A DNA stretch of 64,000 nt from GCF_056712565.1 NZ_CM160072.1; one strand, 5' to 3'. Positions 4,542-42,083 are shown, counted from the first letter of the stretch. A program made the numbers and translations. The notes: generated from the sequence alone by a model not told the origin.

Positions 4542-6008
4542 TCAGGAGCCCAGACGGTAGTTCGGGGACTCTTTAGTAATGGTCACGTCGTGAACGTGGC
4601 TTTCCTGAATGCCCGCACCGCTGATACGTACAAACTCCGCTTTAGTACGCAGTTCGTCGATAGTACCACAGCCGGTCAGGCCCATACAGGAGCGCAGGCC
4701 GCCCATCTGCTGGTGAATGATCTCTTTCAGGCGACCTTTATAGGCTACGCGGCCTTCGATACCTTCCGGCACCAGTTTGTCGGCAGCGTTGTCGCTCTGG
4801 AAGTAACGGTCAGAAGAACCTTTGGACATCGCGCCCAGGGAACCCATACCACGGTAAGATTTGTAAGAACGGCCCTGGTAGAGTTCGATTTCACCCGGAG
4901 ATTCTTCAGTACCTGCCAGCATGGAACCTACCATCACCGCGCTTGCGCCAGCGGCGATAGCTTTAGCGATATCGCCTGAGAAACGGATACCGCCGTCAGC
5001 GATAACCGGAATGCCGGTACCTTCCAGGGCTTCTACTGCATCAGCAACGGCGGTGATCTGCGGAACACCGACACCAGTCACGATACGCGTCGTACAGATA
5101 GAACCAGGGCCGATACCCACTTTAACGGCACTGCAACCGGCTTCTGCCAGCGCGCGGGCACCTGCAGCAGTTGCCACGTTGCCGCCGATGATTTGCAGGT
5201 CAGGATATTTAGCGCGAGTTTCACGGATACGCTGCAGAACACCTTCAGAGTGACCGTGAGAGGAGTCGATCAGCAGAACGTCAACGCCTGCGGCAACCAG
5301 CGCATCAACACGCTCTTCGTTACCAGCGCCCGCGCCAACCGCTGCACCTACACGCAGACGGCCTTGTTCGTCTTTACACGCGTTCGGTTTACGTTCCGCT
5401 TTCTGGAAGTCCTTCACAGTGATCATGCCGATCAGGTGGAATTCATCATCAACCACCAGCGCTTTTTCAACGCGTTTTTCGTGCATTTTTGCCAGCACCA
5501 CTTCACGGGCTTCGCCTTCACGCACGGTTACCAGACGCTCTTTCGGCGTCATGTAAACGCTAACCGGCTGGCTCAAGTCGGTCACAAAACGCACGTCACG
5601 ACCGGTGATAATGCCGACCAGTTCGTTTTCTTCGGTAACAACCGGGTAGCCAGCAAAGCCGTTACGCTCGGTCAGTTCTTTCACTTCACGCAGCGTCGTG
5701 GTTGGCAGTACGGTCTGTGGATCAGTCACCACGCCAGATTCGTGTTTTTTCACACGGCGAACTTCTTCTGCCTGGCGTTCAATGGACATGTTTTTGTGGA
5801 TAAAGCCGATACCGCCTTCCTGAGCCAGAGCAATAGCCAGGCGCGCTTCCGTTACGGTATCCATTGCTGCGGAAAGCATAGGGATATTCAGACGAATAGT
5901 TTTCGTCAGCTGGGTGCTGAGGTCAGCAGTATTCGGCAGAACGGTAGAATGAGCAGGAACGAGGAGAACGTCGTCAAACGTCAGAGCTTCTTTAGCGATA
6001 CGTAGCAT
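4542..6008 (-). CDS. guaB: IMP dehydrogenase
   Basis: Translation from [18 protein letters not shown]... (488 aa) with CBS pair and catalytic [11 protein letters not shown] loop. The track ORF extends 23 codons upstream; the ATG at 6006-6008 is taken as the start. Confidence 0.95.
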
Positions 6009-7578: not shown

Positions 7579-7614
7579 AATAGCTCCCAGGCTACGCCAG
7601 ATCCGCCATGCTGG

Positions 7615-10170
7615 TTACTGGAAGCAGGTCACCAGACCCGGTTTATTTATTAGCGTGATACTACAATCCTGCGCTCCAGTACCTTCGTCCATCCCACACT
7701 GTTGAGAGGACAAATAAGGAAAACTGGGTGAAGACGGCCATCCCAGTGAATTAAAAACAGTATGCAACAACTCTAATTCATTGTATGTCGGTGCATTTTC
7801 TATGCTGCCACACTGCCTTGCGATATCCCATTTACTGGCATCAATGATATGTGCAGAAGCCCAGTTTTCGTAGTTAATAATCGGTGAGGATACGGGATTA
7901 GCCCCGGACGGCAATTCCGTCGTTAACAACGGTCGATGTAGCGATTTACTATTCACCACTACCGTGTCTGCCATATGTCCCCAAAAGTGCGCCGATGAAA
8001 CATTTGGGCTGGTTGGCACCGTAAAAATAGCATCCAGCGTGTCTGTCGCGGAAGCGTAATTAGCCAGAGTAACCGTCAGTGGCATTTTATAACCAGGGGT
8101 ATTATCCTGGCGGAGCGTAAAACTTGCCGTCCCATCCGCGCCTGTCATGCCACTAATGGTATTACCGCTTTCACTCAGCGTAACAGCCGAACCTGATAAC
8201 GGCTGAACGACGAGATCGTCCATCGCCACTACATTGCCATACAACGTTGCCCCAGCGTTACGCGGCGATGCCTCACCACGTTTCAAAGTAAATTCAACAT
8301 TCGGCACCGTATTCCCGGCGCTGTCTTTCACCGTCACGGTAACGGACATGGCTTCGCCTTTTTTCACTTTCGCCGCCTGAGTGGCTGCATCAAACGCTGT
8401 TGAGGTAAGTGTGACGCTGGAAACCGTTGAACGCGCGTTAGCCAGGCAAGGCTGAAATGATTTTGTTGAACCCGTATACAGCGTGCCATTTCTCAAATCA
8501 ACCGACTGGTCTTTACCATCGGCGGATTTATCCTCTGCCCACCAGGTGTAATACGCAGGCCAGCCAGTTTCAGTGACAAACGTGTTATTCGGATAACGCG
8601 CAGACAACGAACTTAAATCATTGAATAGTGGCTGCCTTGCTACTTCACAAGGGCTCACACTCGCATCTGATTTCTGTGTTGGGGTAAAGTACGGCCAGTC
8701 TTCATTATTGTTATTGATCTTGCCGACGCCAGAAGTCGATGTCAGTTCACTCCACAATTTCGGGCGTTCAAATACCGCACCATTCACTGCCGTCAAGGTT
8801 GCTGGCATATGCCCCCAGTAGTTAGCCTTCGCAGAATCCGGGCTGGTCACTACCGTGAATATCAGGTCCTGATTAGCCGTAACCTGCGGATTTCGCGCCA
8901 ATGAAGCTGTAAACGGCGTTACCAGACCAACGGTGTTATTTTGGGTAACGTTGAACGTTATCGTGCCATCACTGCCGGTGAAGCCGCTCCATGCCGACGT
9001 ATTCTGGTTGAAGGAGATACGCGCCGATGTCGGGGTGACTTCATCTAAAATGAGATCATCTACGGTATTGGAGGATACAGAGATCCCTGAACGGCTTTTC
9101 GCCTGCACGCGCTTGAGCGTAACACCTTCGCCGCCAACAGGATTACCATTGGCATCTTTGATCGTCACCACGATGGGAAGCATCTCACCTTTTTTCACAG
9201 ATGACGTGGGGGTACCACCATTGCTGGCAGTTCGGCCCTCATCATAGGCAGTCGATGACAGCGTAAGGCTTGCTGGTGCCGAATGTGGCTGCGTCAGACA
9301 GAGCATTAAAGCGTATCCATTAATAGTCGTCGTCGATTGTCCCGTTTTCAAATTAATGACGCCGTAATACCACGTCAACGCGTCAGTGGTGCTCATTTCA
9401 TAAGTCCACCAATTTCCACTTCCGGCAGTTATAGGCAACCCCAAATCTGTCAGTATTGTCCCGCCTGGATGATCATTATATAGCCCCTGTAACTCATTGA
9501 GACGCGGCTGATACTCAACCGGGCAATCCGGCGTAACTTTATTGGTATAAAAAAGGTATGACCACGACTCATTATTATTACTTACCGAGGACCCCAAGGT
9601 CGCTTCTGCTGCCAGTAGCGGTCGTTTAAAGGTCACCCCCGCCCTACTGGTAAACGTGTCGGGCATATGACCCCAGTATTTTGCTTTCGGTGAGTTCGGA
9701 CTGGTTATCACAGTGAAAATAACATCCATCGTGGCACTTTTTGTGGTGTCGCGCATCAATGTTGCAGTGAGCGGAGTTGCCAGCCCATAAGTCTCGTTTT
9801 GCGTCACATCAAAAGTCGCTTTACCATCACTTCCTGTCGTCAGAAGTGCCTGTGCCCCATTATTATAGAGTGACATGTTTACTCCGGCAGGGGTGACCGG
9901 CACGATAGTAAGATCATCATACGTAGAATCTAGCCTGTTTTTTGCACGATCCAACGCAGTCCCGCGTATGAGATTAAAGTTTGCGCCTGGCAACAGATTT
10001 CCTCCGCTATCCCGCACAATCACCGTCATCCGGATCGCCGTACCTTTCGCCGCCGTTGCACTAGGGCGACCATCGTTGCTGGCCGTTTTCTCCGCATCCA
10101 GTGCCGTGGAGGTCATCTCTATAGAAGCTGCCACTGCATGAGGGTTTACCAGACAGGACACAAATGCCAC
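7615..10170 (-). CDS. ratA: C-terminal segment of the giant RatA-like Ig-like repeat protein; not an independent gene (no signal peptide, frame stays open upstream to about 10308)
   Basis: 851-aa track ORF beginning at an internal GTG. It carries 3 further copies of the repeat module (KYWGHMPDTFTSRAGVTFKRPLLAAE, NYWGHMPATLTAVNGAVFERPKLWSE, HFWGHMADTVVVNSKSLHRPLL). Its frame is open for 46 more codons upstream and that extension aligns with the repeat consensus. Confidence 0.7.
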   Translation of the reverse strand: MAFVSCLVNPHAVAASIEMTSTALDAEKTASNDGRPSATAAKGTAIRMTVIVRDSGGNLLPGANFNLIRGTALDRAKNRLDSTYDDLTIVPVTPAGVNMSLYNNGAQALLTTGSDGKATFDVTQNETYGLATPLTATLMRDTTKSATMDVIFTVITSPNSPKAKYWGHMPDTFTSRAGVTFKRPLLAAEATLGSSVSNNNESWSYLFYTNKVTPDCPVEYQPRLNELQGLYNDHPGGTILTDLGLPITAGSGNWWTYEMSTTDALTWYYGVINLKTGQSTTTINGYALMLCLTQPHSAPASLTLSSTAYDEGRTASNGGTPTSSVKKGEMLPIVVTIKDANGNPVGGEGVTLKRVQAKSRSGISVSSNTVDDLILDEVTPTSARISFNQNTSAWSGFTGSDGTITFNVTQNNTVGLVTPFTASLARNPQVTANQDLIFTVVTSPDSAKANYWGHMPATLTAVNGAVFERPKLWSELTSTSGVGKINNNNEDWPYFTPTQKSDASVSPCEVARQPLFNDLSSLSARYPNNTFVTETGWPAYYTWWAEDKSADGKDQSVDLRNGTLYTGSTKSFQPCLANARSTVSSVTLTSTAFDAATQAAKVKKGEAMSVTVTVKDSAGNTVPNVEFTLKRGEASPRNAGATLYGNVVAMDDLVVQPLSGSAVTLSESGNTISGMTGADGTASFTLRQDNTPGYKMPLTVTLANYASATDTLDAIFTVPTSPNVSSAHFWGHMADTVVVNSKSLHRPLLTTELPSGANPVSSPIINYENWASAHIIDASKWDIARQCGSIENAPTYNELELLHTVFNSLGWPSSPSFPYLSSQQCGMDEGTGAQDCSITLINKPGLVTCFQ

Positions 10171-10286
10171 GGTGTTTGATAATGCCCTGGAGCTTGATCC
10201 ATTCGATAAATTAATAGACTGATCGTACCAGACGTTCGCGTAGGCAATTTTATCGTAAGCCCACCAGGTGTTAGTCAGCGGAAGGC

Positions 10287-28604: not shown

Positions 28605-30917
28605 CTATTGCATGACAAATTTCACTGTCGCTATTTGCCCCACGTCATCCATCACCAGCAATTGATAATCGCCTTTATCCGTCAAATGCAGGGTCACGTT
28701 GCGCCCACGTTCAGTTAACGGTTCGCCATTCAGAAACCACCAGCGTTCACCTGCCCCTCCACTTGATTGCAACGGCAAAGTCGCTTCCGCTGCGCCCGGT
28801 AAACGTTTAATAATCGCGCCATCGCGCACACCTGTTAGCTGCAGCGGGAGTTGTGCATCGTGACCGTATGGCGGGCAAATTGTCGAGGCCGGTGGCAAGC
28901 GCACAGCGCGACGTTCTGATGCGGGCAGCCAGGGTTCCAGCGGTAGCGGCCAGACATTTATCATTTCTTGTCGCGCCTGAGGGCAATCAGCGGCAACACG
29001 TTTGCCGTTTTCATCCAGCCAGATGGGGAAACGAATGCCATTAATGCCTTCCTGCTCCGGCAGTAATAGAGTTGGCGGCTGGCTCCCGTCCAGCAGCCAG
29101 GTTGCCAGGCGGCGGCGACAGTTACCGTCACCTTCCGGCAAAGACTGTCCGCCCGGCCAGCAGATAACGCCACGACTTACAGAGTCAGGACGTGGGTCTT
29201 CCGGCAAATTCACACTGCGCGACAGTAAGATATTATTAACCTGATTCAACAGCGGTACGGCACTGGCAAAGCCAAACTGACCAACAACGGGCGTGCCGTC
29301 CGGTCTGCCAGTCCAGATCCCAATGACATAGCGAGCGTTAACCCCAATCGCCCAGGCATCACGATAGCCATAGCTGGTGCCCGTTTTCCATGCCAGTGGG
29401 GCGACGCGCGGCAAGGCACCATCCGGCAAGGGTTGCGCTTCATCAGCCATAATCCGGCGAATGATCCACGCAGCCCCCGACGACATTAAAGGCCGTTCAA
29501 GCAGCGGATCGTCAGGCTGTAAGCGCAATTTACCTGCCTTGCCGTGGCGAGCAAACGCGGTATAGGCCGCCGCCATATCTTCCAGTTTTGCACCAGCGCC
29601 GCCGAGAATGAGCGAAAGATTCGGCGCAGCACCGTTGGGCAGATACAACGGCAATCCAACATTGCGTAATTTTGCCGCAAACCGTTTCGGTCCATAGGCT
29701 TCCAGCACCTGCACAGCTGGTAAATTCAGCGAGCGCACCAGCGCCTCGCTCATGCTGATCGGGCCATGAAAACCGCTGTCAAAGTTGCCAGGTCGGTAAT
29801 CACCGGTGCGTCTGGGGACGTCTTGCAACAGCGATGCCGGGTGGATCAAGCCTTCATCCAGCGCCAGACCATAAACAAACGGTTTGAGCACCGATCCTGG
29901 CGATCGGATCGCATTGACCATATCAACATGACCAAAGCGTGAATCATCGTTGAGATCAACTGATCCCACCCAGCCGCGAACACGCATATCGGTATGATCA
30001 ACCACGATCATCGCCAGTGAGCTGCGCGGTGGCAATCGTCCTTTCCAGTTTTGCGCCAGTTCTTCCAGACGTCGTTGAAGACCGGCATCCAGCGTAGTAA
30101 CGATTTTGTCGCTTTTGCTTTTACCGAGCATCATGCGCGAAAACAGCGGTGCCAGTTGCGGCATTTGTCGGGGTGCCAGCCAGATGGGTTCTTCCCTTGA
30201 CTCTTTTACCCGCTCACGGGACCACACACCTTGCACGGCCATCCGTTCGAGCACTTTATTACGCGCGGCTTCGGCACGCTCCGGCCAACGATCCGGGCGA
30301 AGACGGCTGGGCGCTTGCGGCAAAACCGCCAGCATTGCCGCCTCGGAATAGCTTAAATTCGCAGGCGATTTCCCGAGGTAAGCCCAACTTGCCGCACCAA
30401 TCCCCTGCAACGTACCGCCAAACGGGGCACGGTTAAGATACAAGGTCAGAATTTCACGTTTAGACAGATGCCATTCCAGTTGCAACGCGCGCCAGAGCTG
30501 GCGAATTTTGCCGCCAAACGTTTTGGGGTGAGGATCAAGCAGGCGCGCCACCTGCATGGTGAGCGTGCTGCCGCCGGAAATGACCCGACCCGACGTGAGA
30601 TCTTGCCAGGCTGCACGCGCCACCGAGAACGGATTCACCCCCGGATGCTTCCAGAACCAGCGATCTTCATAATTGATCAGCGCTTCAAGGTAACGTGGAG
30701 AAACATCTTCGATTGTTACCGGATAACGCCAGATGCCGTCAGCATCGGCGAAACGCCAGAGTGGCGTACCATCCTGCGCCACCACCACGCGTGCAGGATT
30801 CACTTCTTGCAATGGCAGAGGCCAGAGTTTATCTGCTGCCCATGCTGCCAGAATGATGATAAAAGGCGCGGCTGCCAGCATTATCCAGCAGCCGCGTTTG
30901 GTTAACAGGCGAGGCAT
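28605..30917 (-). CDS. pbpC: Penicillin-binding protein 1C (glycosyltransferase / transpeptidase)
   Basis: 770 aa; N-terminal TM, GT51 motifs (EDRWFWKHPGVNP), transpeptidase SxxK region. Start overlaps the yfhM stop. Confidence 0.9.
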   Translation of the reverse strand: MPRLLTKRGCWIMLAAAPFIIILAAWAADKLWPLPLQEVNPARVVVAQDGTPLWRFADADGIWRYPVTIEDVSPRYLEALINYEDRWFWKHPGVNPFSVARAAWQDLTSGRVISGGSTLTMQVARLLDPHPKTFGGKIRQLWRALQLEWHLSKREILTLYLNRAPFGGTLQGIGAASWAYLGKSPANLSYSEAAMLAVLPQAPSRLRPDRWPERAEAARNKVLERMAVQGVWSRERVKESREEPIWLAPRQMPQLAPLFSRMMLGKSKSDKIVTTLDAGLQRRLEELAQNWKGRLPPRSSLAMIVVDHTDMRVRGWVGSVDLNDDSRFGHVDMVNAIRSPGSVLKPFVYGLALDEGLIHPASLLQDVPRRTGDYRPGNFDSGFHGPISMSEALVRSLNLPAVQVLEAYGPKRFAAKLRNVGLPLYLPNGAAPNLSLILGGAGAKLEDMAAAYTAFARHGKAGKLRLQPDDPLLERPLMSSGAAWIIRRIMADEAQPLPDGALPRVAPLAWKTGTSYGYRDAWAIGVNARYVIGIWTGRPDGTPVVGQFGFASAVPLLNQVNNILLSRSVNLPEDPRPDSVSRGVICWPGGQSLPEGDGNCRRRLATWLLDGSQPPTLLLPEQEGINGIRFPIWLDENGKRVAADCPQARQEMINVWPLPLEPWLPASERRAVRLPPASTICPPYGHDAQLPLQLTGVRDGAIIKRLPGAAEATLPLQSSGGAGERWWFLNGEPLTERGRNVTLHLTDKGDYQLLVMDDVGQIATVKFVMQ

Positions 30918-33900
30918 TTACGGTCTGACTATCAACAGATCGTCAGCCGCACCAGTCGCCCGCCATTGAGGAACATACATTGATTCCACCATAGGCTGCG
31001 GCACCTGATACGTTCCCGGCGTCACCGCCCGCGCCAGATACACCAGCGTTACCGGTTGATATTCATCAACGGCAACCGCCGCCACAAAGCGATCGTCACG
31101 GAACTCTATGTGCTTAATGCTCGCCTGCTGCATCTGGTTCAGCAAGTTCTGCACTTCACCACCACTTTGCTCCAGGCTGGCGCTGCCGTTCGCCAGATTC
31201 TGGTTTTCCAGTTCCAGCCCCGCAGGCAACAGATCCACGACTAACGCATCCGGTACACTGTTACTGGCTTTAACCTGCAACCACACCAGCACCAGATCGC
31301 CGCTACGTAACGAGTCCAGCGATTTGCTCTTACCGTCAGTACCCAGAATATGACGCTCAATTTGCAGCACATTGCTCGCCGGTAAAGGTGCGGATTGCGG
31401 ATAACCGCTGGCATCCACACGCAGCCATAACGGCTGATCGCCACTGTTGGTCACCTGCAAGGTGGCAAGTTGATCGCTATTCAGATTGCTGGTTTGCGCT
31501 TTCTCGCCTGTCAGCGGCTCAGCAGAGAAAGTGGTTTGCGCCTGCCATTTGCCCGGTAAATCCTGAAGAGTACGGGCAGCCAGGAACAACGCGTTACTTT
31601 CCTGCGTCGATAGCCAGCGTTCACCGAACGCCTGCTGCGAAAGTGTGTTCAACAGGGAGTACTGCTCATCGGGTAGCAGTTTGTTCTCTTCCAGCAATGA
31701 GAGCATCAACGCGCTGTCGCGCAGTGGACTACCGTAATCACCCAGCCATATCCGCTCATCACTATTACGCGGCGTTTTCAGCGCCAGCACAATCGCTTCT
31801 TCACCACGCATTGCATCACCCATGGTTTTCAGCGCAACGCCAAGTTGCAGCAGCGGTAAACCAGAAGCGGCATCTGCACGATGCTCCCAGATTTCACGCA
31901 GCGCACCCAGTGGTGCTTTTTGCTGACGGGCCAACACCAGCGCAGCGTAAGACTGTACGGCGAATTTACTGGCTTTGAGATTATCAGCGTACGGGATCGA
32001 CATCATGCCCGGATCTTGTAAATAGCGCAGCAGACGCTCATTACCCCGGTTAATGGCGTCTGTCGGCACGCTGTAACCCTGTTCGCCTGCGCGGACCAGG
32101 AAATCCATCACGTAAGCCGTCAGCCAGTACTCTTCGTCACCGTTTTTATCCCACAACGCAAAGCCGCCGTTATCACGTTGCATTTGCAGCAAACGGGAAA
32201 TGCCGATATCGACCGATGCACGGCGTTTCTCATCACTGTCGCCTTTGATGCCCAACGCCTGCAGTTGGGCTGCATTGGTATAAAGTGACGGGAACAGGCC
32301 GCTGGCGGTTTGCTCGAGACAGCCGTACGGATACGCTTTTAACTCTTTGATATAACGTGCGATGTTCAGCGGTGGTTTGCCACTCAACAACAATTGCCCT
32401 TCCAGCGTAACAGGCGAGAAGTTTTGCAATCCATCAGCCGGGAGCGCCCAGGTTTCACCAGGCTGTAACGCCGTACCGTAATTGACCGTTTGTGCCGGGA
32501 ATGCCGGACGGACGCCGATTTTCCACTGCTTATGCTGATCGGCAACGGTTTCCCCCGGTAACGCTAACCCGCTAATGGTGGCCTGAATGTCTCCATCGCC
32601 ATAACCCGGCAATGCACGCACCGGGATAAACAGCGTAGTACGCACCCCTGGCGCTAATTCAACAGGTGCGGGGGAATTACTCACCAGTTCAAGCAAGCCA
32701 CTGGCGGTCAGAGCAACATTAAGTTTTTGCGGTTTATCGGTAAGATTAGTGATATCCAGCGTCAGGCGCGAGGTATCGCCACTCGCCATAAAGCGCGGCA
32801 TGTTCAGTTCAGCAATCACCGGTGCGGCAACAATCACTTTGCTTTCGTTGCTTCCGAAGTCATCTGCCGTCCAGGCTTGCGCCATGACGCGCAATTCACC
32901 GTTAAAATCGCCAATTGGCAGTGTAACCGAGCCTTCGCCCTGTTCATTGAGCGTTACCGGCAGCGCCTGCTGCGCGACAATATTGACGTGATTGACCGGC
33001 GGTTTACCACCACGTTTCAGCTCATCACCATCGCCACCAAAACGCAGAGCTGCCAGACGCCCCTGACCTTCAATGACCTGACCGTAAATATCGTAAATGT
33101 CTGCGCCATAGCGTTTCTGACCAAAGAACGCCTGCCACGGATCTGGCGTGACGTAATCAGTAATATTCAGCACACCGCTATCAACCGCAGACACCAGCAC
33201 ATTCACCTGTTTTGGCATCTCACCATTTTTATTGCTGGCTTTAATTTTCACGGTTAATGGCTGATTGGGGCGCATTTTGGTGGGGGTTTCCAGCGCCAGA
33301 TCGAGGCGACGGTTTTCATCACCAAGCGGCAGATGCAACACCCCAACCGCGCGTTTTGGCGTCGCGGAGCGAGATTTATCGCCAGGACGTACCACCAGCG
33401 TACTTAAATACAGATCATGACGATTCCAGGTTTTATCGACCGGAATCGTCAGATCCAGCCCTTGAGCCGGAACATCAATCTCTTGCCACCACAGCGGCCC
33501 TTCACTGGACTCGACCATCGCATAACCTTTACCCGCCGTTGGCGCGGCAATATGCAACTTAATGGTATCGCCAGGGCAATAGCTGGCTTTATCCAGTTTC
33601 AGCGTGACACGGTCGGGTCGCACTGCACCACCCCCGTCGCTGTTATCCTGCCAGCTATACCCAGCCCAGAAACGCACACTACTGACCGCTTCATTCGGCG
33701 CTTTAACTTCCAGACGATAAGCGCCCCACTCTACCGGGAAACTGACCTTACCGGTTTCGTCCGCTTTCAGATCCAGAGTTTGTTCATTTTCGATCAGATC
33801 TTTTTGATCAAACTGTGACTGCCAGCCTTCATATTCCGACCAGTTCCAGTAGTAATCGCGGCGTTCGCGAATCAAGCGCACCTGCAAGCCCGACACGGCT

Positions 33901-35879
33901 TTTTTCACGCCTTGCGCATCGCTATAAACGATGTCAAAAGCGGCGTTACTACCTTCATCAACAATGGGCTGTTTCACCGTGCTGTCGGTGCGATAATCGT
34001 AAACCGATTTCGAGGCGAACTGCGGACGGATCCCTGGCAATGCATCAGCAGGCCAGATAGCCTGCTCAGCACGGCGCGTCACCGGGCGACCGCCCGATTC
34101 CAGCAAACTACCCTGGAAAATAACCTGTAATGGGGAATGTGTTTCCTTCCACTGGCTTTCTGTAGAAACTTCGCCGCGCCCTTTATCATCCAGCGTCAAC
34201 TGAACTTCATCCAGCGTGCGGGAAAGATTTTCGGCAGCTATATCGCCGAATTCAAAACCAGGTAAGGCTGACACAGCTTCACGCAGTGGGCGCAGGAAAA
34301 GTTGCCCTTGCAAAGTATTACCATTAGCAGGTGCACCATACAGGTAGTACCCCACCACGGAGAATTTCACTTCATCTTTCGGCGTTAGCGGGGTTTTCTC
34401 ACCGGTCAGATTCAGCGCCATACGCTCTGGCATAAAATCTTCGACGTGGAAATCCCACATCCGATACTGGTTATCGCCCGTGTTAGCGCGAATATGCCAC
34501 ATACCGGTTGCCGCATTGCTATCGAGTGGCCAGGTAAAGTGGTAGAGGCCATTCTCCGGCTGACTAACGACGCTCCTGAGTACCTGCCCGTCGGGTTTAA
34601 TCACGTCTAACTTGATGGGTTGATCGGGCAATGCTTTACCGTCTGCATCACGCAGCAAACCATTGAGGATGACCGTTTCACCCGGGCGATAAAGATCGCG
34701 CGGGCCAAACATGAAAAACTGTTTGCTATAGCCCGGCGCGCCAGCAATGTTAAATTCCGCTAAGTCCAGCGCCGGGAGTTTTAAATCGAGCAGCGTTGTC
34801 CGACCGTTTTTACGCGCCAGCAGTAATGCCGCGTTTTTATCATTTTCCAGCTGCACATGCCCCTGAGCGTCACTGGTTGCCTGAGTCAGAGTCTGCCCTT
34901 TCTCATTTAATAAAGAGACTTCAATTCCTTGCTGGGCCGCGCCGTTTTCCAGACTTTGGGTAAAGATATCCAGACGATTGTGATAACGGTGAGCTGAAAC
35001 GCCAATATCACTTAACGTAAACAGCGTCGCGGGATTACTGTAATCGTAACGTCCAGCCTGATTCATCACAGCCAGATACACGCCCGCCTGCTGAAGCGGT
35101 TTGATATCGCCCAGCGGCAGCAATAATTTTTCACGGGTGTTACGCGCAGGATTGAGATCAAACCGTCCGGTGTAGACCAGATCCGCCATCTGCAGCAGTT
35201 TATCTGACTGCCAGTTCGCCAGCGAATTGCGGTATTCCCACTGGCTAATGAAAGCGGGCAGTGATTCTGGTTTCACACGGAAGAAGTTAACATCGACATT
35301 GTTAACGTTAAGCGCCATTACCGGCAGCCCTTCAACGACCTTACCAGGAAGCAACGAACCACGACTGGCAAAACCGACGCTGGGTTGGATATCGCGGGTA
35401 GTTATAGTTTTTTCGTCATCTTTACTAAAGGTTGCGTTATTGAGCGCTTTGACCTCCTTGCCAATAGTGACGATCAAATCACGTTTCGGTTCGAGGTGGC
35501 GTAAACGCAGCTCTTTAAGATTATGTGACAGCTCCCAGGCACCATCCACTTTGCCGCTTTTTTTATCGACGACATGAATAACGCGTGAGAAATCCTGATC
35601 CGGGTCGAGAGGGATGGAGAACGTCAGCACCAGCGTGGCTGCGCCATCGAGTTGAACTTCAGAGAGATCCAGCAATGTCAGCGCCTTACCGGCACTCTGT
35701 TGGGCCAGTTTTTGTCGCTCCGGCGCGGAAAGTTTTGCTGAACTCACGTTTTCTGAAGAGGCCGCTTTAGTAACTTCAGAAGGCGCATCTTTTTTCACCG
35801 CTGTTGGCGCGTTATCGTTGTTGTCGCACCCTGCCAGCGCCAGCATTAGCATGCAGGCGGCTACGCGTAACTTTTTCAT
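30918..35879 (-). CDS. yfhM: Alpha-2-macroglobulin family lipoprotein (thioester-containing)
   Basis: 1653 aa; lipoprotein signal MKKLRVAACMLMLALAGC; thioester motif GCLEQ (YPYGCLEQTASG). Confidence 0.9.
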   Translation of the reverse strand: MKKLRVAACMLMLALAGCDNNDNAPTAVKKDAPSEVTKAASSENVSSAKLSAPERQKLAQQSAGKALTLLDLSEVQLDGAATLVLTFSIPLDPDQDFSRVIHVVDKKSGKVDGAWELSHNLKELRLRHLEPKRDLIVTIGKEVKALNNATFSKDDEKTITTRDIQPSVGFASRGSLLPGKVVEGLPVMALNVNNVDVNFFRVKPESLPAFISQWEYRNSLANWQSDKLLQMADLVYTGRFDLNPARNTREKLLLPLGDIKPLQQAGVYLAVMNQAGRYDYSNPATLFTLSDIGVSAHRYHNRLDIFTQSLENGAAQQGIEVSLLNEKGQTLTQATSDAQGHVQLENDKNAALLLARKNGRTTLLDLKLPALDLAEFNIAGAPGYSKQFFMFGPRDLYRPGETVILNGLLRDADGKALPDQPIKLDVIKPDGQVLRSVVSQPENGLYHFTWPLDSNAATGMWHIRANTGDNQYRMWDFHVEDFMPERMALNLTGEKTPLTPKDEVKFSVVGYYLYGAPANGNTLQGQLFLRPLREAVSALPGFEFGDIAAENLSRTLDEVQLTLDDKGRGEVSTESQWKETHSPLQVIFQGSLLESGGRPVTRRAEQAIWPADALPGIRPQFASKSVYDYRTDSTVKQPIVDEGSNAAFDIVYSDAQGVKKAVSGLQVRLIRERRDYYWNWSEYEGWQSQFDQKDLIENEQTLDLKADETGKVSFPVEWGAYRLEVKAPNEAVSSVRFWAGYSWQDNSDGGGAVRPDRVTLKLDKASYCPGDTIKLHIAAPTAGKGYAMVESSEGPLWWQEIDVPAQGLDLTIPVDKTWNRHDLYLSTLVVRPGDKSRSATPKRAVGVLHLPLGDENRRLDLALETPTKMRPNQPLTVKIKASNKNGEMPKQVNVLVSAVDSGVLNITDYVTPDPWQAFFGQKRYGADIYDIYGQVIEGQGRLAALRFGGDGDELKRGGKPPVNHVNIVAQQALPVTLNEQGEGSVTLPIGDFNGELRVMAQAWTADDFGSNESKVIVAAPVIAELNMPRFMASGDTSRLTLDITNLTDKPQKLNVALTASGLLELVSNSPAPVELAPGVRTTLFIPVRALPGYGDGDIQATISGLALPGETVADQHKQWKIGVRPAFPAQTVNYGTALQPGETWALPADGLQNFSPVTLEGQLLLSGKPPLNIARYIKELKAYPYGCLEQTASGLFPSLYTNAAQLQALGIKGDSDEKRRASVDIGISRLLQMQRDNGGFALWDKNGDEEYWLTAYVMDFLVRAGEQGYSVPTDAINRGNERLLRYLQDPGMMSIPYADNLKASKFAVQSYAALVLARQQKAPLGALREIWEHRADAASGLPLLQLGVALKTMGDAMRGEEAIVLALKTPRNSDERIWLGDYGSPLRDSALMLSLLEENKLLPDEQYSLLNTLSQQAFGERWLSTQESNALFLAARTLQDLPGKWQAQTTFSAEPLTGEKAQTSNLNSDQLATLQVTNSGDQPLWLRVDASGYPQSAPLPASNVLQIERHILGTDGKSKSLDSLRSGDLVLVWLQVKASNSVPDALVVDLLPAGLELENQNLANGSASLEQSGGEVQNLLNQMQQASIKHIEFRDDRFVAAVAVDEYQPVTLVYLARAVTPGTYQVPQPMVESMYVPQWRATGAADDLLIVRP

Positions 35880-36085
35880 TTTTCATCCCTGCCACAATGG
35901 CCCGTTAGCAACGTCGAATAATTATTATGCGTGAGAATTTACGTTATGTAATTCAGTATCACGCCCATACAATCCGAATTTTAGTGAGAATTGTGGCTCA
36001 GACAGCCAAATCAGCCTCTTTTGCTTGTCGCTTTTCACTAAACATCCGACAATTTAGCCTAACCCCGGCAAAAATGGAGATGCCT

Positions 36086-37109: not shown

Positions 37110-37425
37110 TATTATCCACTGCGGCCCTTTCCGCCGTCTCGCAAGCGGGCGCTGGCTTAAGGAAAGGATGTTCCGCGACCGTTAGGGCAAGCGCGTCTCA
37201 GCGCTTGCTATCGCGGCAATATCGCCAGTGGTGCTGTCGTGATGCGGTCTTCGCATGGACCGCACAATGAAGATACGGTGCTTTTGTATCGTACTTATTG
37301 TTTCTGGTGCGCTGTTAACCGAGGTAAATAATAACCGGAGTCTCTCCGGCAACAATTTACTGGTGGTTAACAACCTTCAGAACAGCAAGTAAGCCCGAAT
37401 GCCGCCCTTTGGGGCGGCATGTTTT
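37110..37425 (+). ncRNA. ryfA: Candidate RyfA-type small RNA locus in the sseA-sseB spacer (boundaries approximate)
   Basis: About 450 bp with no ORF of 60 aa or more. Possible promoter TTGTCA-N16-TATTGT near 37073-37101. Terminates in a strong plus-strand hairpin with T-run at 37397-37425. From memory, ryfA occupies the sseA-sseB spacer in E. coli; the 5' end is a guess. Confidence 0.3.
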
Positions 37426-39895: not shown

Positions 39896-40231
39896 TTAAT
39901 GCTCACGCGCATGGTTGATAGTGTAACGCGGGATTTCGACCACTAAATCTTCGTCGGTAACGCGCGCCTGGCAGCTTAAACGGCTTTCCGGCTCCAGTCC
40001 CCAGGCTTTGTCCAGCATGTCGTCTTCCTGCTCTGAGCTTTCCGGCAGCGAGTCAAAACCTTCACGAACGATGCAGTGGCAGGTGGTGCAAGCACAGGAT
40101 TTTTCACAGGCGTGTTCAATCTCGATACCGTTACGCAGCGCAACGTCGAGAATGGTTTCACCACTATTCGCTTCCAGAACAGCGCCATCAGGGCAGAGAT
40201 CCTGATGAGGCAAAATAACAATCTTTGGCAT
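39896..40231 (-). CDS. fdx: [2Fe-2S] ferredoxin of the isc cluster
   Basis: 111 aa, [53 protein letters not shown]... Confidence 0.95.
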
Positions 40232-40232
40232 A

Positions 40233-42083
40233 TTAAACCTCGTCCACGGAATGGCCTTTCAGCGCACGACGAACCGACTGGTCCATGCGGCGAGCGGCGA
40301 AATCCTGGGTTTGTTTGTCTACGTTTTTAATCGCTTGTTCGATGGCGTCAACATCATCGCCCTGCGCCACTTCACTCAGGTGAGCGGCAGCATCGTCAAT
40401 GACCTGACGCTCTGCGGCGCTTAACAGCGCGGCATCAGCAGCCAGCGCGCCGTGCAGACTTTCCAGCACACGCGCCGCTTCTACTTTTTGTTCTGCCAGC
40501 ATTCGGGCTTTTACGTCCTGCTCGGCATAGCTCATTGAGTCTTTAATCATCGAGGCGATTTCGCTGTCGGTCAGGCCATAAGAAGGTTTGACCTGAATAG
40601 ACGCCTCAACGCCGGTGGATTTCTCCATCGCCGTCACGCTCAAAAGACCGTCGGCATCGACCTGGAACGTCACGCGAATATGCGCGCCGCCAGCCGGTAG
40701 CGCCGGGATACCACGCAGTGCAAAACGCGCCAGCGAGCGGCAGTCCTGCACCAGTTCACGCTCACCCTGCATTACATGGATAGACATCGCCGTCTGACCA
40801 TCTTTAAAGGTGGTGAAATCCTGGGCGCGAGCCACCGGAATCGTGGTATTACGCGGAATCACTTTCTCCACCAGGCCGCCCATCGTTTCGAGGCCCAGCG
40901 ACAGTGGGATCACATCAAGCAGCAGCATTTCGCTGTCTGGCTTGTTACCCACCAGAATATCCGCCTGAATCGCCGCGCCAATAGCGACGACTTTATCCGG
41001 GTCGATGGAAGTCAGCGGTGGACGACCGAAAAATTCGCCTACCCGTTCACGCACCAGCGGCACGCGAGTAGAACCGCCCACCATCACCACTTCCAGCACT
41101 TCATCAGCTTCTACACCCGCGTCTTTCAGCGCGCGACGACAAGCCAGTAAGGTTCGTTTTACCAGTGGCGCGATCAGTTCATTGAATTGTTCACGGCTGA
41201 TTTCGCCCTGCCAGCCCGCAACGTTAACGGTCACGGAGTCCGCATCACTCAGCGCGATTTTGGCCGCAATGGCGGCATCCAGCAGTTCACGCTGAACGCG
41301 GTTATCGCTACGATCAGGAATGCCCGCCTGCTCGCGAATATAATCCGCCAGCAGATGGTCGAAATCATCGCCGCCGAGCGCGGAATCACCGCCGGTTGCC
41401 AGCACTTCAAACACGCCGCGACTTAAGCGCAGAATGGAAATATCAAACGTCCCGCCGCCGAGGTCATAAACGGCGATCACGCCTTCCTGACCGGAATCCA
41501 GCCCGTAGGCGATAGCCGCAGCGGTCGGTTCGTTAAGTAAGCGCAGAACATGCAACCCCGCCAGACGCGCCGCGTCTTTGGTGCCCTGACGCTGGGCATC
41601 GTCAAAGTACGCCGGAACGGTGATAACTACACCATCCAGCTCGCCTGCCAGGGCTTCAGTTGCCCGCGCCGCCAGTGCTTTGAGGATGTCCGCAGAAACG
41701 CGCACCGGGTTCAGCAGCCCCGCCGCCGTTTCAATCATCGGCAGGCCATTTTCGCTGGCCTGGAATTGATAAGGCAGATGCGGATAGCGTTGCTGGATAT
41801 CAGCCAGCGAGCGCCCCATCAGGCGTTTAACAGAACTAATGGTGTTGGCGGTGTCGAGCGCTGCGTTAGTACGCGCGTCATAACCCACCGAATGCCCTTG
41901 CTGTTGATAGTGAACAACAGATGGCAACAGGTGACGGCCTTCATGGTCAGCTAACGTTTCGGCCTGACCGCTGCGCACTGTCGCCACCAGCGAGTTGGTT
42001 GTGCCCAGGTCAATACCGGCCGCCAGACGACGCTGATGCGGCGCAGCACTCAAACCAGGTTCACTAATTTGTAATAAGGCCAT
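40233..42083 (-). CDS. hscA: Fe-S cluster chaperone HscA (Hsp70 family)
   Basis: Translation from [34 protein letters not shown]... (616 aa). ATG at 42081-42083; the track ORF has an 18-codon extension. Confidence 0.95.

Follow-up and report, generated by a model that had tools for sequence, protein, structure and literature searches.

Genes for class 1 bacterial alpha-2-macroglobulins lie next to pbpC, the gene for the penicillin-binding protein PBP1C. This adjacency and the proposal of a joint role in defence and cell-wall repair are established (Budd 2004, as cited in PMC4498604, PMC3328433 and PMC3735191). We analysed a stretch of 64,000 nucleotides (nt) from GCF_056712565.1 NZ_CM160072.1, one strand read 5' to 3' and counted from its first letter (the window), which carries the Escherichia coli pair yfhM-pbpC on its minus strand. 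The genes, their order and the proposal of a protease trap combined with wall repair are the same as those described for the class 1 macroglobulin/PBP1C pair (PMC4498604, PMC3328433; Salmonella and Pseudomonas comparisons in PMC3735191). The original prediction for this locus held that the pbpC start codon directly abuts the yfhM stop codon, that a thioester-containing macroglobulin is thereby co-expressed with a peptidoglycan glycosyltransferase, and that the pairing had been proposed as a periplasmic defence-and-repair module. The last point agrees with the published work cited above. Here, we describe the junction of the two genes and a covarying RNA hairpin that lies within the first codons of pbpC.

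The gene yfhM (ECAM; 30918..35879, minus strand) encodes a lipoprotein alpha-2-macroglobulin of 1653 amino acids (aa), as given by its open reading frame (ORF), translation, Pfam and RefSeq. The translation contains the lipobox LAGC at residues 15-18 (35826..35837, minus strand) and the thioester motif CLEQ at residue 1187 (32310..32321, minus strand), and Pfam assigned the domains bMG1, MG2, bMG3, bMG5, bMG6, bait region, A2M, TED, CUB and bMG10. With its lipobox, CxEQ thioester, bait region, MG domains and neighbouring pbpC, the predicted YfhM is a class 1 bacterial alpha-2-macroglobulin. The gene pbpC (28605..30917, minus strand) encodes a class A penicillin-binding protein of 770 aa, as given by its ORF, Pfam and RefSeq, with the domains Transgly (PF00912), Transpeptidase (PF00905) and BiPBP_C (PF06832) and the motifs EDRWF, GGSTLTMQ, SVLK, SLN and KTG. 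The predicted product is PBP1C, since the glycosyltransferase, the transpeptidase and the PBP1C-specific C-terminal domain were all found. The two proteins thus match the macroglobulin with a thioester and the glycosyltransferase named in the original prediction. The RefSeq annotation of E. coli ATCC 11775, which is 100% identical to the window, places the same contiguous boundaries between yfhM and pbpC. Of 5426 complete E. coli genomes, 5425 carry the region and one gave no match. In E. coli NCTC9100 (NZ_LR134239.1), the junction query matched in the yfhM half only, and pbpC is seemingly deleted or interrupted at the junction.

The stop-start junction of yfhM and pbpC

Across the junction, the minus strand reads ...GTC AGA CCG TAA ATG CCT CGC CTG.... 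Direct reading placed the yfhM stop codon TAA at 30918..30920 and the pbpC start codon ATG at 30915..30917 (both minus strand), leaving a spacer of 0 nt. The claim that start and stop abut is therefore correct; the overlap of the two codons that had been suggested as a check was not found, as they are directly adjacent without sharing a nucleotide. The K-12 junction is identical in layout. No other gene pair in the window has a 0-nt spacer. The only 1-nt junction in the window is that of hscA and fdx (~40231..40236, minus strand), where fdx, unlike pbpC, has an SD-like (Shine-Dalgarno-like) tract of -6.6 kcal/mol. With a spacer of 0 nt, yfhM and pbpC share one reading frame, and read-through of the TAA in the window would give a fused YfhM-PbpC polypeptide of ~2424 aa. 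This fusion is probably incidental, because relatives with a 1-nt spacer are out of frame.

We compared the junction across Enterobacteriaceae, using the window and one locus from each of 80 further species (81 in total). A full-length pbpC lay directly downstream of yfhM in all 81 species, with spacers of 0-13 nt. The spacer was 0 nt in 25 species (Escherichia, Citrobacter, Salmonella, Klebsiella, Raoultella), 1 nt in 43 (Enterobacter, Kluyvera, Kosakonia and others) and 6-13 nt in the remaining 13 (Buttiauxella, Cedecea, Franconibacter, Atlantibacter). The yfhM stop codon was TAA in 73 species, TAG in seven and TGA in one, and the pbpC start codon was ATG in 52, GTG in 28 and TTG in one. Short junctions are common in E. 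coli, where 707 of 2987 co-directional pairs (24%) fall between -8 and +6 nt (PMC10666635). A 0-nt junction alone is statistically unremarkable, but its conservation among species exceeds chance.

The gene pbpC has no SD sequence. The best duplex between the 3' end of 16S rRNA (the anti-SD) and positions -20..-4 reached +0.4 kcal/mol, ranking 45th among the 46 annotated genes of the window, whose median was -5.95 kcal/mol. In the 68 species with a spacer of 0-1 nt, nearly all SD energies were +0.4 to +1.2 kcal/mol, and the most favourable was -1.7. The 13 species with spacers of 6-13 nt mostly carry weak SD-like tracts, down to -7.0 kcal/mol.

A sigma-70 consensus scan of the gene strand found no promoter-like site within ~5 kb upstream of pbpC. 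Of the two matches nearest to the pbpC start, one lies within pbpC itself and the other 45 nt before the yfhM ATG. The latter (ATTACA-17-CATAAT, 35924..35952, minus strand, 9/12 consensus matches) may be the promoter of the operon. From the lack of a promoter match at the junction and of room for one there, co-transcription of yfhM and pbpC appears the most plausible arrangement. The original prediction had set an independent promoter and terminator between the genes as the finding that would speak against it; no promoter match was found near the junction, and a terminator-like hairpin is present but lies inside pbpC.

In E. coli reporter assays, reinitiation was active where genes overlap or are separated by a very short gap, and at +38 nt little of it remained (PMC10666635). 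The stop-to-start proximity typical of reinitiation-coupled pairs was found here, at 0 nt in the window and 0-1 nt in 68 of the 81 species. Because stop and start abut, no SD is present, the 0-1 nt spacing is conserved and these distances fall within the published range for reinitiation, termination-reinitiation coupling is the likeliest route by which PbpC would be made.

A covarying hairpin in the first codons of pbpC

The terminator scan, RNAalifold and covariation analysis all identified a hairpin of 12 base pairs (bp), CGCGGCUGCUGG-AUAAUG-CUGGCAGCCGCG, at 30867..30896 (minus strand), which corresponds to pbpC +22..+51 and to codons 8-17 (RGCWIMLAAA). Nine of its 12 pairs are GC, its folding free energy (dG) is -22.3 kcal/mol, and its 5' arm begins 21 nt after the yfhM stop codon. 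Across spacers of 0-13 nt, the position of the hairpin relative to the pbpC start had a mode of +22.

Two alignments were used: A2, which holds the 81 Enterobacteriaceae species, and A4, a second, codon-anchored alignment with Pantoea-type sequences added. RNAalifold on A2 returned the hairpin as the sole consensus structure at the junction, with none upstream of or across the start codon. The arms differ wholly between genera yet remain complementary: CGCGGCUGC / GCAGCCGCG in E. coli, CGCUCCCGC / GCGGGAGCG in Enterobacter, AAACGCCGC / GCGGCGUUU in Klebsiella, AAAACCCGC / GCGGGUUUU in Superficieibacter and CGCCCCG / CGGGGCG in Kluyvera. In A2, 89.6% of hairpin cells were paired, compared with 35-57% when the partners were slid by 1-3 columns; 10 of the 12 pairs showed double-sided changes, and the covariation score was 0.447 against at most 0.19 for the slid partners. 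In A4, the corresponding values were 92.7% against 31-63% and 0.539 against at most 0.258. The covarying codon pairs were UCC/GGA, GGC/GCC, ACC/GGU, CCC/GGG and AAA/UUU.

The hairpin was also compared with controls for stability. Its median dG was -22.6 kcal/mol, compared with -14.4 for the best hairpins in control coding windows of the same genes, and only 2.4% of the control windows reached the real median. The native hairpin folded better than synonymous recodings of the same peptide in all 21 species tested (median z = -1.97). The covariation and the synonymous-recoding tests together counter the idea that the hairpin is a mere artefact of protein coding. This comparative evidence shows that the hairpin exists and is selected at the RNA level.

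Because the arms are coding, PBP1C itself co-varies: residues 8-10 change together with residues 15-17 across genera (K-F, S-G, G-A, C-A, T-G). No protein-level reason predicts such co-variation. The RNA structure thus appears to constrain the juxtamembrane and membrane-anchor peptide of PBP1C.

A covariance model built from A4 had one match in the 64-kb window (30851..30908, 42.4 bits, E 6e-10). No Rfam family matched the hairpin, with a best E-value of 0.62, far below the gathering score, and in the literature mentioning yfhM we found no description of a hairpin at the junction. In one relative, Kluyvera genomosp. 3 YDC799 (locus L037), a 1-nt deletion in the 3' arm at ~5590..5600 shifts the pbpC frame, and the resulting translation lacks the WPLPL motif; this may be a pseudogene or an assembly error.

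Other structures at the junction were considered and rejected. The 141-nt fold around the E. coli junction is unusually stable (z = -4.64) and places the pbpC start between helices formed with the yfhM 3' end, but RNAalifold over the 81 species gave no consensus for such start-codon sequestration. A structure of the kind needed for RNA-unfolding coupling was predicted in E. coli alone, with no consensus pairing over the pbpC start among these species. A downstream alternative start at Met13, which lies in the hairpin loop in this strain, was dismissed, as the residue is Thr in K-12.

The hairpin is also terminator-like, being a stable GC-rich stem-loop. In the window it is followed by a U-rich tail, CCUUUUAUCAUCAUU (30852..30866, minus strand; terminator scan and translation), which has a weak U-tract and also codes for the first residues of the PBP1C membrane helix (PFIII). 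Klebsiella carries AUAAAACGCCGC...GCGGCGUUUAUUUUUUUG, and in Klebsiella and Raoultella-like loci the terminator-shaped sequence is AUAAAACGCCGCUGGCGCUGGCUGGCGGCGUUUAUUUUUUUGCUG. In Pantoea, the hairpin is GGAAAAAGCGGUGGC-ACUG-GCCGCCGCUUGUUUUUUUGG and the terminator-shaped sequences are GGAAAAAGCGGUGGCACUGGCCGCCGCUUGUUUUUUUGG or AAAAAGCGGUGGCUCGCGCUGCCGCUUUUUUUUCUGG. The hairpin is followed by 7-8 consecutive U in Klebsiella and Pantoea and by seven U in Rouxiella. By its predicted fold, the hairpin with its U-run in Klebsiella and Pantoea has the shape of an intrinsic terminator within coding sequence.

We then examined loci beyond Enterobacteriaceae, comprising 87 further loci from exact-protein look-ups and a single metagenome scan, for which a Yersinia-first alignment served as the anchor. 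Three of the 87 had no same-strand pbpC within 1.5 kb downstream, and one of these three contigs ends ~390 nt past the stop. In 79 of the 87, we could measure how far the conserved xPLPL motif of PbpC lies from the stop. This distance was bimodal, with 39 tight loci (93-156 nt; E. coli 93) and 40 long ones (190-1019 nt, Pseudomonas-like). We applied a loose, uniform criterion for a terminator-like site (dG of -9 kcal/mol or lower, at least 5 U in 8 nt, within 110 nt past the stop). Such a site was present in 62 of the 81 Enterobacteriaceae loci and 36 of the 39 other tight loci, compared with 88 of 485 control coding windows (18%). Compared with the same part of pbpC in spacer lineages, tight-junction lineages had longer U-runs (median 4 vs 3) and more U in the best 8-nt window (6 vs 5) at equal overall U content (0.27). 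Only in the tight-junction lineages did these runs lie next to the stem, and most of the best windows fell near its end.

The hairpin lies in the pbpC coding sequence in Pantoea (spacer 3 or 6 nt), in Hafnia (spacer 10 nt, a different sequence, dG -23.7) and in Rouxiella (spacer 18 nt). It lies in the spacer itself in Winslowiella (37 nt), Erwinia billingiae (40 nt), Yersinia enterocolitica (52 nt, or 325 nt in a second contig; a 12-bp hairpin 9 nt past the stop) and Serratia (60 nt; a hairpin of ~16 bp 2 nt past the stop). The spacer hairpins of Yersinia and Serratia are strong but lack U-tracts. Another relative (L085) has a 116-nt spacer with two hairpins, the second of which is a clean intrinsic terminator. 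The A4 covariance model found the element in none of the long-spacer loci searched. Sequestration of an SD sequence was considered for Yersinia and Serratia and rejected: the spacer hairpins do hold the sole purine-rich tract, but we do not claim it as a working SD because it is at least 13 nt from the ATG.

The spacers of Yersinia, Serratia, Erwinia, Winslowiella and Pseudomonas-type loci range from 37 to ~650 nt. The conservation of the gene pair across proteobacteria, which the original prediction had named as a check, held in that the pair is widely kept, in agreement with the literature, but the tight spacing is not, and translational coupling, as judged from these distances, is not a general property of the pair. 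Enterobacterales seem to share a different feature, namely a stable hairpin that separates the macroglobulin gene from the main part of pbpC and that, in lineages without the spacer, is found inside pbpC.

Several long spacers showed further repeats. The two Y. enterocolitica spacers (L083, 325 nt; L092, 52 nt) differ by an insertion of ~270 nt, and the longer one carries an extra palindrome, GUGCCGCGCCAUAUAUGGCGCGGAC, which may be a small mobile repeat. In Pseudomonas syringae (L084, 4608..4680), the spacer after the macroglobulin gene contains a TTGGTTGA tandem repeat, and a Pseudomonas spacer (L087, 1320..1430) contains GGAGCCGGCCTTGCCGGCGAT palindromes resembling repetitive extragenic palindromic (REP) elements.

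Proposed control of pbpC expression and its rivals

From the junction anatomy, the conserved spacing, the missing SD and the selected hairpin, we infer an operon with reinitiation at pbpC, where the hairpin, as a leaky terminator or attenuator, would hold down the output of that gene. In this scheme, one promoter ahead of yfhM would drive both genes as a single transcription unit. PbpC would be made mainly by ribosomes that finish YfhM and restart at the adjacent ATG, because pbpC has no ribosome-binding site of its own and its ATG touches the yfhM stop. The hairpin would be free to form in the mRNA, because its 5' arm lies beyond the reach of a ribosome terminating at the yfhM stop. It could then serve as a leaky intrinsic terminator or attenuator, as a barrier lowering reinitiation, or as both. 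Its geometry fits a gene-end terminator, whose stem would be melted by a ribosome that had restarted and advanced several codons. Only part of yfhM expression would thus continue into pbpC, so that the macroglobulin would be abundant and PBP1C scarce. We regard the whole chain as an evenly balanced proposition. For the co-expression claimed in the original prediction, the outcome is divided: the lack of a junction promoter match and of an SD and the conserved 0-1 nt spacing support it, but the hairpin argues against matched output and for unequal, throttled expression.

Several points weigh against this scheme. The tail in the window, CCUUUUAUCA, is weak, with 5 U in the 8-nt window starting 2 nt past the stem, and the K-12 tail, CCCUUUCUCCUUUUUC, is poorer still in U. 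The U-richness is also largely periodic, recurring every 3 nt as membrane-helix coding would produce, and the significance values for the longer U-runs of tight-junction lineages ignore shared ancestry. An initiating ribosome would not cover the hairpin, which begins at +22, so that initiation need not be affected by it. A genomic SELEX (systematic evolution of ligands by exponential enrichment) peak of the sigma-E holoenzyme lies inside yfhM at K-12 coordinate 2649866 (PMC5493296), which maps roughly (inexactly) to window position 33460, ~2.5 kb upstream of pbpC. This peak could mark an internal envelope-stress promoter feeding pbpC, whose transcripts would still pass the hairpin. We found no transcript, 3'-end or ribosome-profiling data for the locus in the literature and no usable PBP1C copy numbers, and the supplementary lists searched for the E. 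coli 3'-end map of Adams 2021 name neither pbpC nor yfhM and give no coordinate close to them. Little can be concluded from the latter blank, as laboratory expression of the operon may be low.

The hairpin might instead protect RNA. As a 3'-exonuclease barrier or processing element, it would stabilise the yfhM segment after Rho-dependent termination or RNase cleavage in pbpC, and the two parts of the message would decay at different rates. REP hairpins between malE and malF, which cause differential mRNA decay, provide the model for such a role. That the hairpin is conserved everywhere and a good U-tract is not would suit this explanation, as would the REP-like palindromes in Pseudomonas-type spacers and the strong hairpins without U-tracts in Yersinia and Serratia. 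A stability element, however, needs neither the A-run nor the 7-8 U that flank the hairpin in Klebsiella, Pantoea and Rouxiella, and the U enrichment is concentrated at the stem end; we consider a pure stability role unlikely. The effect of the hairpin might also be purely translational, in that it lowers or gates reinitiation at pbpC, or pauses RNA polymerase so that the ribosome catches up, while transcription continues. In a published screen (Chemla et al., as summarised in PMC12548453), coupling was lower where RNA structure closely followed the stop of the first gene, and the position of the hairpin is fixed relative to the start (mode +22 at spacers of 0-13 nt). Yet a hairpin at +22 lies beyond the initiation footprint, this role would leave unexplained the A-runs and U-runs beside the hairpin in several lineages, and the distance from the start may merely follow the protein architecture, a short cytoplasmic tail followed by a membrane helix. 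A purely translational role accordingly seems somewhat less probable still than a stabilising one.

The least probable reading, which we think improbable, is that there is no regulation at all. Genome compaction would then have produced the junction, pbpC would have an SD-less independent start of low rate, and the hairpin would be a by-product of an R-x-R-W...A-x-A motif with complementary CGC/GCG codons. Short junctions are indeed frequent in E. coli (the 24% of co-directional pairs given above), and CGC (Arg) and GCG (Ala) are preferred codons that are inherently complementary. This reading is countered by the covariation of the variable middle codons of the hairpin, by the better folding of the native sequence than of its synonymous recodings in 21 of 21 species and by the collapse of pairing in the slid-partner controls; moreover, uncoupled SD-less internal starts are poorly used.

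Returning to the leaky terminator or attenuator, its fullest form would be a working element wholly within the first 20 pbpC codons of Enterobacteriaceae, Pantoea and relatives, with RNA pairing partly dictating the anchor sequence and the junction setting the ratio of a protease trap to a cell-wall synthase. In that form, the extent of read-through may vary with the lag of the reinitiating ribosome behind RNA polymerase, and the junction might also be a condition-sensitive gate. We advance this form tentatively, as a possibility that falls short of the probable. Should the hairpin terminate or attenuate transcription, it would be a clean natural case of a regulatory RNA that overlaps coding sequence and shapes a membrane-anchor peptide. 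The missing ribosome-binding site of pbpC and the strongly selected hairpin together offer a concrete, testable reason for unequal amounts of YfhM and PbpC. If the hairpin does terminate or attenuate, the cloning, fusion and knock-out of pbpC would be affected as well, since expression would be altered in constructs lacking the yfhM 3' end or carrying recoded versions of the first 20 codons. To our knowledge, no clear physiological role of PBP1C has been established so far, and the timing of pbpC read-through could point to conditions where PBP1C matters.

Neighbouring features and relation to described systems

Several further observations were made around the locus. Between ATCC 11775 and K-12 (locus L082), divergence was 3.6% in yfhM, 4.1% in pbpC, 7.2% in the first 500 nt of pbpC and 2.8% in ndk, and in a 1-kb region around the junction most complete E. 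coli genomes are merely 90-95% identical to ATCC 11775. Recombination is one possible cause of this divergence, and relaxed or diversifying selection is another. The gene timP, annotated between sseA and sseB (37267..37392, plus strand) and thus two genes upstream of yfhM, encodes a small toxic inner-membrane protein. At ~7587..18995 (minus strand), between der/yfgJ and xseA, lie genes for the intimin-like inverse autotransporter SinH, for SinI and for an adhesion-domain protein (gene of 8052 nt). These three genes, which K-12 is not known to carry, may form an island of the extraintestinal pathogenic E. coli (ExPEC) type.

Among described systems, the reinitiation pairs hyfH-hyfI, ydbH-ynbE and menD-menH (Huber et al. 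2019/2023, PMC6728339, PMC10666635) are likewise co-directional, fall within -8..+6 nt and have a downstream gene without a good SD. Their overlaps measure 1 or 4 nt, and the products are often subunits required in fixed ratios. The probably coupled pair yfhM-pbpC differs from them in that the genes abut at 0 nt, the spacing drifts among relatives (0, 1, 3, 6 and 13 nt) and a strong hairpin follows. Terminators and attenuators within operons that lower distal expression are exemplified by the rpsU-dnaG terminator and the rplL-rpoB attenuator. The yfhM-pbpC element would resemble these two in having a GC-rich stem and a U-rich tail after a more highly expressed proximal gene, with read-through providing a scarce distal protein. 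Those elements are intergenic, whereas the putative terminator described here is embedded in the distal gene, within its first 20 codons, with an anchor peptide that co-evolves. The likeness to RNA-unfolding coupling, as in rpmI-rplT and MS2 coat-lysis (PMC12548453), is confined to the single-sequence fold of E. coli, as the pairing is not conserved. The literature on class 1 macroglobulins and PBP1C describes the adjacency or operon without the anatomy of the junction or a hairpin, and at the protein level we found no difference from it here. The abutting junction is thus ordinary and largely known, and the covarying hairpin embedded in pbpC is a modest new item.

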